A stretch of DNA of 33,566 nt from Candidatus Jordarchaeia archaeon. GTDB taxonomy: Archaea; Asgardarchaeota; Jordiarchaeia; Jordiarchaeales; Jordiarchaeaceae. The stretch spans positions 1 to 33,566 of the forward strand of contig JAHQXB010000088.1 in the NCBI GenBank assembly GCA_029856435.1. The letters run 5' to 3'. Position 1 is the stretch's first letter. Every line of letters begins with the position of its first letter. A program made the translations under genes and the position numbers. Below, piece by piece: positions 1,178 through 9,046 of the stretch. The notes beneath the pieces were generated by a model that did not search any database, was not told the origin of the DNA, and saw only the letters and a list, made by a program, of their open reading frames with translations.

Positions 1178-1756
1178 GTGGAGGCCACCGAAAAAACAGC
1201 ACCAACCAAAAAAAGAGCGGAACTAATTTCTGGAAATAGAGTAATAGTATGGAATCCTGAGGAAGGCTCCCAACTTTACGCCGAAGGCTTCTACGGACAA
1301 CCCCTAGGAATAAGAAAACCAAAATCACCCCAATTCACACGCCCCCTTGAACTCTCCCTACTAGAAGCCTTATACTTACTCCAAAAAGAAAAAATCACAC
1401 TCACCGACGCCCAAGACAACCACGCTATAACCCCCGAAGAACTACTGGAAAAAGCAGAACAAACCTACATAGACTTTAAAACCAAATATGCGGTCTACAA
1501 AGACCTTAGAGAAAAAGGGTACGTAGTCAGACCCGGGCTTAAATTTGGAGCAGACTTCTCCGTCTACGAGCACGGACCCGGCATAGATCACGCTCCCCTC
1601 ATAGTATCAGTCGTCCCAAAAGGAACACAGCTCAGCCCCATAGAAACGGTAAGGGCGGGACGTCTCGCAACCAGCGTCCGGAAAAAATTCGTGGTAGCAA
1701 CAGTATCTCCCACAGGGGAACCAAAATACTACATGTTCACGTGGCACAAACCCTAA
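1178..1756 (+). CDS. endA: tRNA splicing endonuclease (tRNA-intron lyase), catalytic subunit
   Basis: LELSLLEALYL, VYKDLREKGYVVRPGLKFGADFSVY (catalytic Tyr), GIDHAP (His), TSVRKK (Lys); GFYGQPLGIRKPKS loop resembles the crenarchaea-specific loop. GTG start. Confidence 0.95.
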   Translation: MEATEKTAPTKKRAELISGNRVIVWNPEEGSQLYAEGFYGQPLGIRKPKSPQFTRPLELSLLEALYLLQKEKITLTDAQDNHAITPEELLEKAEQTYIDFKTKYAVYKDLREKGYVVRPGLKFGADFSVYEHGPGIDHAPLIVSVVPKGTQLSPIETVRAGRLATSVRKKFVVATVSPTGEPKYYMFTWHKP

Positions 1757-1863
1757 ACCCAAAAATCGAAAAACAAAATCACAAACTCAGATTCCCTATT
1801 TTTCCACTAATTATAAAAATAAAACAATTTCCTCCTCACAGTTCAAAAATCGAAATGACAAAT

Positions 1864-1880
1864 CCGAAAAAATTTTATAT
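1864..1880 (+). promoter_or_regulatory. BRE + TATA box of the tRNA-His gene
   Basis: CCGAAAAAA-TTTTATAT about 35 nt upstream of the tRNA G-1. Confidence 0.55.
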
Positions 1881-1914: not shown

Positions 1915-2108
1915 GGCCCAAGTGGGGTAGAGCAGTGTGGCTACACGCTGAGCCCATTGGTTTATCCTCGGGGACTGTGGCTTTCTTGGGTGTGTCTCCA
2001 AGATAATAGACATCCCCTGACCCGGGTTCCGTAGCCAGTTTGGCTGGTTCGGGATTTCAATTTGAGGATTAGCCTTTGGCTGTTCTCATGAATATCCCGG
2101 CTTGGGCC
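1915..2108 (+). tRNA. trnH: tRNA-His(GUG) with four introns; G-1 encoded, C73 discriminator, CCA not encoded
   Basis: Exons 1915-1930, 1958-1980, 2012-2026, 2056-2061 and 2095-2108 join to GGCCCAAGTGGGGTAGTGGTTTATCCTCGGGGACTGTGGATCCCCTGACCCGGGTTCAATTCCCGGCTTGGGCC (74 nt). This folds as a full cloverleaf: acceptor GCCCAAG/CTTGGGC plus G-1:C73, D-loop AGUGGUUUA, anticodon stem GGGGA/TCCCC with loop CU-GUG-GA, T arm CCGGG-TTCAATT-CCCGG. Introns 1931-1957, 1981-2011, 2027-2055 and 2062-2094 each have a 4-bp BHB central helix. Confidence 0.92.
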
Positions 2109-8407: not shown

Positions 8408-9046
8408 ATGTCACTAACCGAGAGCCAAAAGAAAGTGTTGGAACGACTAAACAATCAGGTTCAAGACCTAAGCGACCAAATAAAAAAGAAAGATGAAGAA
8501 CTAGAGAAAAAGGAACAAAAAATAGGTGAACTTCAAAAAAAGATAGTCGAGGAAAACAAAGCGAAAGAAGAGCTAAAGACAAAAATAGAGCAGGTAAGTC
8601 GCACCCTAGACGAAAAAATTAAGGAAATAAACAACTTAGAAAACAAAATCCAGGAATTAGAACAAAAAAACAAAGATCTACAAAACAAAATCAAAACACT
8701 AGAAGGAATAAATGAAAAACAAGCACAAGAAATAAGAGCAAAAGAAGCCCTACTCCAAAAAGCCCAAGAAACAATATCTGACAAAGAAGTAAAAATAAAA
8801 GAACTACAAACCCAGCTAATCCATTTCGAGGAGAGAGAAAGAAGGACAAGAAACATCTTCGAAAAAGACCTCAAATACAAAATCTTCTACATACTACGGG
8901 ACTCAGGCAGCAGAAGCTTCGAAGAACTCAGCAAAACACTAGGAATAACCCTAATCCAACTGAAAACATATATTTCAGAACTAAAATCCCACGGACTAAT
9001 CGAAATAAGAGAAGAAAACATAGAGGTAGCCAGAGACTACAAGTAA
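8408..9046 (+). CDS. Long coiled-coil protein with C-terminal winged HTH
   Basis: About 140 aa of K/E/Q-rich heptads, then KYKIFYILRDSGSRSFEELSKTLGIT..LKTYISELKSHGLIEIRE (wHTH). ATG at 8408. Confidence 0.8.
   Translation: MSLTESQKKVLERLNNQVQDLSDQIKKKDEELEKKEQKIGELQKKIVEENKAKEELKTKIEQVSRTLDEKIKEINNLENKIQELEQKNKDLQNKIKTLEGINEKQAQEIRAKEALLQKAQETISDKEVKIKELQTQLIHFEERERRTRNIFEKDLKYKIFYILRDSGSRSFEELSKTLGITLIQLKTYISELKSHGLIEIREENIEVARDYK

Follow-up and report, generated by a model that had tools for sequence, protein, structure and literature searches.

Positions 1915–2108 of the window (the whole 33,566-nt stretch of DNA analyzed here, contig C104 of the host assembly) very probably contain a functional tRNA-His(GUG) gene, and probably the only one of its genome, that is interrupted by four bulge-helix-bulge introns and would be spliced by the endonuclease EndA and the ligase RtcB. 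This reading draws on the anatomy of the locus, the register of its splicing motifs, their covariation across the genus, and the enzyme genes that the genome contains, all of which are directly observed. The host is an Asgard archaeon (Freyarchaeia), and its assembly is a 3.54-Mb draft of 181 contigs with 42% G+C, an estimated completeness of 97.8%, and 5.7% contamination.

The 194-nt locus lies on the forward strand and divides into 74 nt of exon and 120 nt of intron, with exons of 16, 23, 15, 6, and 14 nt separated by introns of 27, 31, 29, and 33 nt. A preliminary description of this DNA had claimed that deleting 1931–1957, 1981–2011, 2027–2055, and 2062–2094 leaves a canonical 74-nt tRNA-His with a G-1:C73 pair; when those four deletions were applied, ARAGORN called the resulting 74-mer tRNA-His(gtg), and the intron share given there (120 of 194 nt) was likewise confirmed from the sequence. 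In the spliced product G-1 is genome-encoded and pairs with C73, and U8, A14, the D-loop GG, U33, a purine at position 37 (G37), G53-U54-U55-C56, A58, and C61 are all legible by direct reading. The anticodon loop formed by splicing is CUGUGGA, 7 nt with GUG, U33, and the purine at 37, and it is unchanged in all six genomes of the genus. Features of the locus and its surroundings are as follows.

1178–1756, forward strand: EndA catalytic (alpha-type) subunit gene, 192 aa, with PF02778 and PF01974, ending 158 nt upstream of tRNA-His
1863–1879, forward strand: putative archaeal promoter, a BRE/TATA-like block TCCGAAAAAATTTTATA, 36–52 nt upstream of G-1
1915–1930, forward strand: exon 1, with G-1, acceptor 5′ strand, U8, G9, D-stem 5′ strand, A14, and G15
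1931–1957, forward strand: intron 1, 27 nt, site 15/16, relaxed HBh′; G10-U13 paired with intron GCCC, and a 7-bp intron hairpin
1958–1980, forward strand: exon 2, with the 3′ part of the D-loop (GG), D-stem 3′ strand, anticodon stem 5′ strand, and C32 U33 G34 U35 G36 G37
1981–2011, forward strand: intron 2, 31 nt, canonical site 37/38, full hBHBh′; central helix CUGU/AUAG, and an intron hairpin
2012–2026, forward strand: exon 3, with A38, anticodon stem 3′ strand, a 4-nt variable loop, and T-stem 5′ strand to G53
2027–2055, forward strand: intron 3, 29 nt, site 53/54; C48-G51 paired with intron CGGG, and a hairpin behind an internal loop
2056–2061, forward strand: exon 4, a 6-nt micro-exon of the T-loop, U54 U55 C56 A57 A58 U59
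2062–2094, forward strand: intron 4, 33 nt, site 59/60; UUCA/UGAA, with a 7-bp intron helix and an apical hairpin
2095–2108, forward strand: exon 5, with U60, T-stem 3′ strand, acceptor 3′ strand, and discriminator C73
2109–2134, forward strand: 3′ trailer, CTCAAT and then a T-rich stretch; CTCAAT invariant in six of six genomes, T-run conserved

Each of the four introns has a fully paired (4/4) central helix in the register that places both cuts after the second nucleotide of the 3-nt bulges, and the helices proposed in the preliminary description (GGGU/GCCC, CUGU/AUAG, CCCG/CGGG, and UUCA/UGAA) proved correct in every position. The insertion sites named there, 15/16, 37/38, 53/54, and 59/60, are backed by the spliced product, by the register of the motifs, and by covariation across six genomes. 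As a control for chance, random boundaries in the host genome gave a 4/4 helix in 2.2% of cases, and in 0.3% when an outer helix was also required. By direct reading, only 1, 1, 4, and 2 boundary placements yield the identical mature sequence for introns 1–4, so that at the 2.2% rate a 4/4 helix in all four introns has a chance expectation of about 1e-6.

At least one outer helix (h or h′) is present for each intron, and the motifs of two of the four, introns 1 and 3, are relaxed forms. The outer helix of intron 2 is the 5-bp anticodon stem. Intron 1 is without an exon outer helix and forms its HBh′ motif on the D-stem 5′ strand. For intron 3 the exon outer helix is short (44–46:55–57, 3–4 bp, reduced to 2 bp in genome G002), with an internal loop beside the bulge, while intron 4 has an HBh′ motif before removal of intron 3 and, after that removal, a full hBHBh′ motif with the T stem as outer helix. 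Nucleotides 55–57 are needed by both the intron 3 outer helix and the intron 4 central helix, and the outer helix of each of these two introns competes with the central helix of the other. The predicted fold of the precursor is much more stable than those of shuffled sequences (z = −6.1). A single fold that holds all four central helices together with the acceptor stem has a free energy of −76.4 kcal/mol, compared to a minimum of −91.4 kcal/mol. We also considered an obligatory order of splicing; it is not needed, since one fold accommodates all four central helices. Stepwise intron removal is possible in these folding models but not required.

Introns 3 and 4 (2027–2094) also share a 16-nt core, TAGCC..TTTGGCT.GTTC, in the host and in genomes G003 and G004, with a score reached by 3 of 5000 shuffles; the core is absent from G005 and G002 and was not seen in other tRNA contexts. 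At best it hints weakly at intron copying inside the gene.

The locus recurs in each of the other five genomes of the genus, with identities of 71–92%, and a six-way alignment places the four introns at identical positions in all six, including the published complete Freyarchaeia genome (G005). A survey of related genomes for the same intron positions, as suggested in the preliminary description, thus returned a match in every other member of the genus. ARAGORN called all six spliced orthologs tRNA-His(gtg), and the G-1:C73 pair (alignment columns 1 and 200) is G-C throughout. Central helices are intact in 24 of 24 cases (four introns in six genomes); when the pairing partner was slid by 1–3 columns as a control, only 28–52% of cells were paired. 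For intron 1 the central helix is paired in all six genomes, with variation between G-C and G-U and between U-G and C-G. There is almost no variation in the exons, and the introns vary by substitutions and by indels of 1–2 nt with their hairpins kept; five pairs in the intron helices are altered on both sides, and the acceptor stem of G002 carries two compensatory pairs (A-U, A-U to G-C, U-G). Misassembly, which had been named as a possible refutation, is excluded because the locus occurs in six independent assemblies, one of them the closed published genome.

Conservation extends into the flanks. The 17-nt BRE/TATA-like block is identical across the six genomes, although the flank around it has diverged, and its position and consensus point to a promoter. 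The T-rich stretch of the trailer is a probable terminator. The tRNA-His gene does not encode CCA, unlike the Gly, Gln, Asp, Val, Ile2, and Arg genes examined, in which CCA is encoded.

We also carried out a search that was blind to the coordinates of the preliminary description. It required a 7-bp acceptor stem, G-1, U8, A14, C73, GUG, and cloverleaf pairing, and allowed up to five introns of 10–110 nt, each with a 4/4 central helix and an outer helix. Across the host genome (7,333 acceptor candidates), this search returned only the tRNA-His locus, and its top solution contained the same four introns. BLAST of the exons against the host genome gave no second tRNA-His, the matches being the locus itself and a tRNA-Asp that shares its acceptor stem; neither did an anticodon-arm scan or the position-agnostic search reveal another credible gene in the host genome. 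The intron-tolerant finder is specific rather than sensitive, with only 5 CCA-encoding class I tRNAs recovered genome-wide, and the absence of another tRNA-His is therefore a weak negative. The proposal that the genome has no other tRNA-His gene accordingly holds in that all three approaches found none, within this limited sensitivity. The closed genome G005 likewise contains only one match to the locus. The tRNA-Asp(GUC) gene (G000 contig C115:30640-30771, minus strand) is interrupted twice, by introns of 28 and 30 nt, and its acceptor stem is nearly that of tRNA-His; a version of the finder restricted to 37/38 introns failed to recover this known gene.

Standard tools do not detect the gene before splicing. 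On the unspliced window neither ARAGORN nor any Rfam model reports the locus, and whole-genome runs of both gave nothing at the locus and about six tRNAs in total, a number so low that interruption of tRNA genes must be genome-wide. The expectation that standard finders would probably miss this gene is thus borne out by the silence of ARAGORN and Rfam on the unspliced sequence and by a published tRNAscan-SE/R2DT table without tRNA-His. That such a genome could appear to lack tRNA-His, as had also been suggested, is exactly what this table for a complete genome of the same genus conveys: none of its 38 rows is a His, Phe, Glu, or Cys tRNA (PMC11291895, Supplementary Data 4). The ortholog is present in G005, at about G005:C1:1921594-1921790, despite the missing His row. 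The gene would therefore supply the histidine decoder that this table, drawn up for a complete Asgard genome, lacks, and it offers a concrete case that is missed by ARAGORN, by the Rfam tRNA model, and apparently by tRNAscan-SE. Cases of this kind bear on how the completeness of Asgard genomes and their coding capacity are judged, and on intron censuses that start from detected genes.

We considered three other readings of the locus. It might be a decaying tRNA-His pseudogene whose inserts are never spliced, with a working gene elsewhere, either split, permuted, or in unassembled DNA. Split tRNA-His genes do occur in Nanoarchaeum, the assembly is a draft, and the limited sensitivity of our search for a second gene leaves some room for this reading. 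It is nevertheless very unlikely given what the alignment preserves: nearly invariant exons, an acceptor stem whose pairing is maintained by compensatory changes, 24 of 24 intact central helices, and an invariant promoter block, all at locus identities from 92% down to 71%. The closed genome, moreover, has the same gene as its single match, and no other locus was found. A reading as protein-coding or random intergenic DNA, in which the tRNA-like product is an artifact of the chosen deletions, might appeal to the open reading frames of 51–97 aa that overlap the locus on both strands. The 97-aa frame has no Pfam match, though, and the 1- and 2-nt indels among the orthologs are incompatible with a reading frame; chance motif rates of 2% and 0.3%, together with an unbiased search of 7,333 candidates that gave only this locus with these introns, speak against an artifact. 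The six-genome alignment effectively refutes this reading, to which we assign a negligible probability.

The third alternative keeps the gene and changes the T-arm, with introns at 2030–2052 and 2056–2094 around a 3-nt exon GAU and a T-loop of UUCGAUU. It was the second valid solution of our own search of the host genome, but its first central helix, GGGU/GUUC, contains three G-U pairs by direct reading, and the UUC that it would retain as exon is missing from G005 and G002, where intron 3 starts with CTC and AAC, respectively. The original parse gives UUCAAU across the six genomes (UUCAAC in G002, the other five of the six positions being invariant), and the alternative is highly improbable.

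The genes needed to process such a transcript are present, one of them immediately upstream. The best PDB match of the 192-aa EndA is 3P1Z_B (3e-45), followed by 3AJV_B, 2CV8_A, and 2ZYZ_B, all of which we take to be catalytic subunits of crenarchaeal tRNA-splicing endonucleases, and the alignment spans the Y...H...SVRKK motifs of the catalytic domain. A second paralog is encoded on another contig of the host assembly.

G000 contig C64, L035:1195-1788, forward strand: second EndA paralog, 197 aa, with PF01974; best alignment to the M. jannaschii enzyme

In this protein a Ser occupies the position of the catalytic His of the M. jannaschii enzyme, which suggests a non-catalytic, structural beta subunit, and the pair of genes points to an EndA of alpha2-beta2 (heterotetramer-type) composition. 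This type is linked to relaxed motifs and to introns at non-canonical positions. The host genome also encodes RtcB ligase and one HisRS. Thg1 was not found in the host genome, and G-1 must therefore be encoded. The sole RtcB match (G000 contig C93:302-1636, minus strand) contains one in-frame TGA, which could represent selenocysteine, an error in sequencing, or an interruption of intron type.

From these sequences we infer how the tRNA would be made. Transcription from its own promoter would give a precursor of about 200 nt, in which each intron would fold with neighboring exon sequence into a bulge-helix-bulge. A heterotetramer-type EndA would cut each 3-nt bulge between its second and third nucleotides, and RtcB would join the five exons, one of them only 6 nt long. 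RNase P would leave the encoded G-1 in place and CCA would be added post-transcriptionally, after which the product could be charged as tRNA-His. The T-arm, with two introns around a 6-nt exon, would make a compact natural test substrate for the action of heterotetramer-type EndA on adjacent, competing motifs.

The EndA and tRNA-His genes also lie side by side in G001, G002, G004, and G005, four of the other five genomes of the genus; the fifth, G003, is uninformative, with a contig break between the two genes. The sister family does not share this arrangement, and its EndA gene has other genes downstream. One could read the two genes as a conserved functional unit, a gauge by which the capacity for translation is tied to that for splicing; we regard this as unlikely. 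The weaker part of the same proposal, and one unlikely jointly with it, is that the published His, Phe, Glu, and Cys gaps arise only from genes invisible to the finders. If the gauge were real, maturation of the sole tRNA-His would depend on eight cuts and four ligations, with two competing motifs around a 6-nt exon.

As for novelty, the implication of the preliminary description that four introns in one tRNA gene are new does not hold, since Valentin-Alvarado et al. (2024) list four-intron tRNAs of this genus and a 2026 preprint reports as many as five introns in one gene. The former describes four-intron tRNA-Ile2(CAU) and tRNA-Arg(UCU) genes in a complete Freyarchaeia genome, with introns in 92–95% of tRNA genes and several in more than half (Valentin-Alvarado et al., 2024, Nat Commun, PMC11291895, Supplementary Data 4). 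G005, a single contig of the same genus, reproduces the published SRVP_Freyarchaeota coordinates for spliced tRNA-Gln, Ile2(CAU), and Arg(UCU), and ARAGORN called the two four-intron genes, once re-spliced, tRNA(cat) and tRNA-Arg(tct). Both resemble the tRNA-His gene in having four short bulge-helix-bulge introns, non-canonical sites included, and in yielding a normal tRNA after splicing. They differ from it in being found by tRNAscan-SE and in encoding CCA; the tRNA-His gene is absent from the published table, encodes no CCA, and carries a 6-nt T-loop exon between two introns.

For Freyrarchaeaceae, Jordiarchaeaceae, and Atabeyarchaeaceae, the preprint reports ~2.2 intervening sequences per gene, with a maximum of five in a single gene; the introns sit at canonical motifs, and those of the D-arm often escape tRNAscan-SE (Goswami et al., 2026, bioRxiv 10.64898/2026.10.13.758758). 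Its census starts from genes detected by tRNAscan-SE and its main text makes no mention of tRNA-His, so that a wholly missed gene was presumably uncounted. This tRNA-His gene is apparently unreported as such, while the class of heavily interrupted Freyarchaeia tRNA genes has already been described; the general picture is unchanged, because four-intron tRNAs of the genus are on record.

The preliminary description had placed multi-intron tRNAs mainly in Thermoproteales. Before 2024 the stated maximum there was indeed three introns per tRNA gene (tRNAscan-SE 2.0 paper, PMC8450103), but the present host is an Asgard archaeon and lies outside that group. Multi-intron tRNAs of Thermoproteales likewise have bulge-helix-bulge introns at 37/38, 53/54, 59/60, and in the D-arm (Sugahara 2007/2008; PMC8450103), a motif may form only after a neighboring intron has been taken out, and their EndA is alpha2-beta2. 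They differ in belonging to the phylum Thermoproteota and in having no more than three introns per gene.

Closer to the host, the tRNA-His(GUG) of Atabeyarchaeia-2 (G031:C1:471150-471400, minus strand) shares the encoded G-1, C73, and the absence of an encoded CCA, and CTCAAT (2109–2114 in the window) directly follows that gene as well. This gene, published with one intron, is interrupted at 13/14 by 39 nt, and sites 15/16, 37/38, 53/54, and 59/60 are free of introns; the four introns of the host gene are therefore not shared with that class. In the sister family (G006–G010), the exact anticodon-arm pattern gave only non-tRNA matches and no tRNA lies downstream of the EndA catalytic gene; in two of these genomes (G006 and G009), examined with ARAGORN and our own His finder, no His was among the Rfam tRNA matches listed as loci. 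A further locus, L106 (G021:C1:366100-366400, minus strand), corresponds to a published “His GTG, possible pseudo” if G021 is Atabeyarchaeia-1. Read by eye, it has A at −1 and A73 followed by CCA, and on that same assumption its assignment as tRNA-His is doubtful.

Intron content appears to vary within the genus for at least one other tRNA: in a pairwise alignment, the tRNA-Arg(UCU) ortholog of the host (G000 contig C94, about 8590-8752, minus strand) seems to be without the fourth intron of the G005 gene. In contrast to tRNA-Arg(UCU), the four introns of tRNA-His are fixed within the genus.
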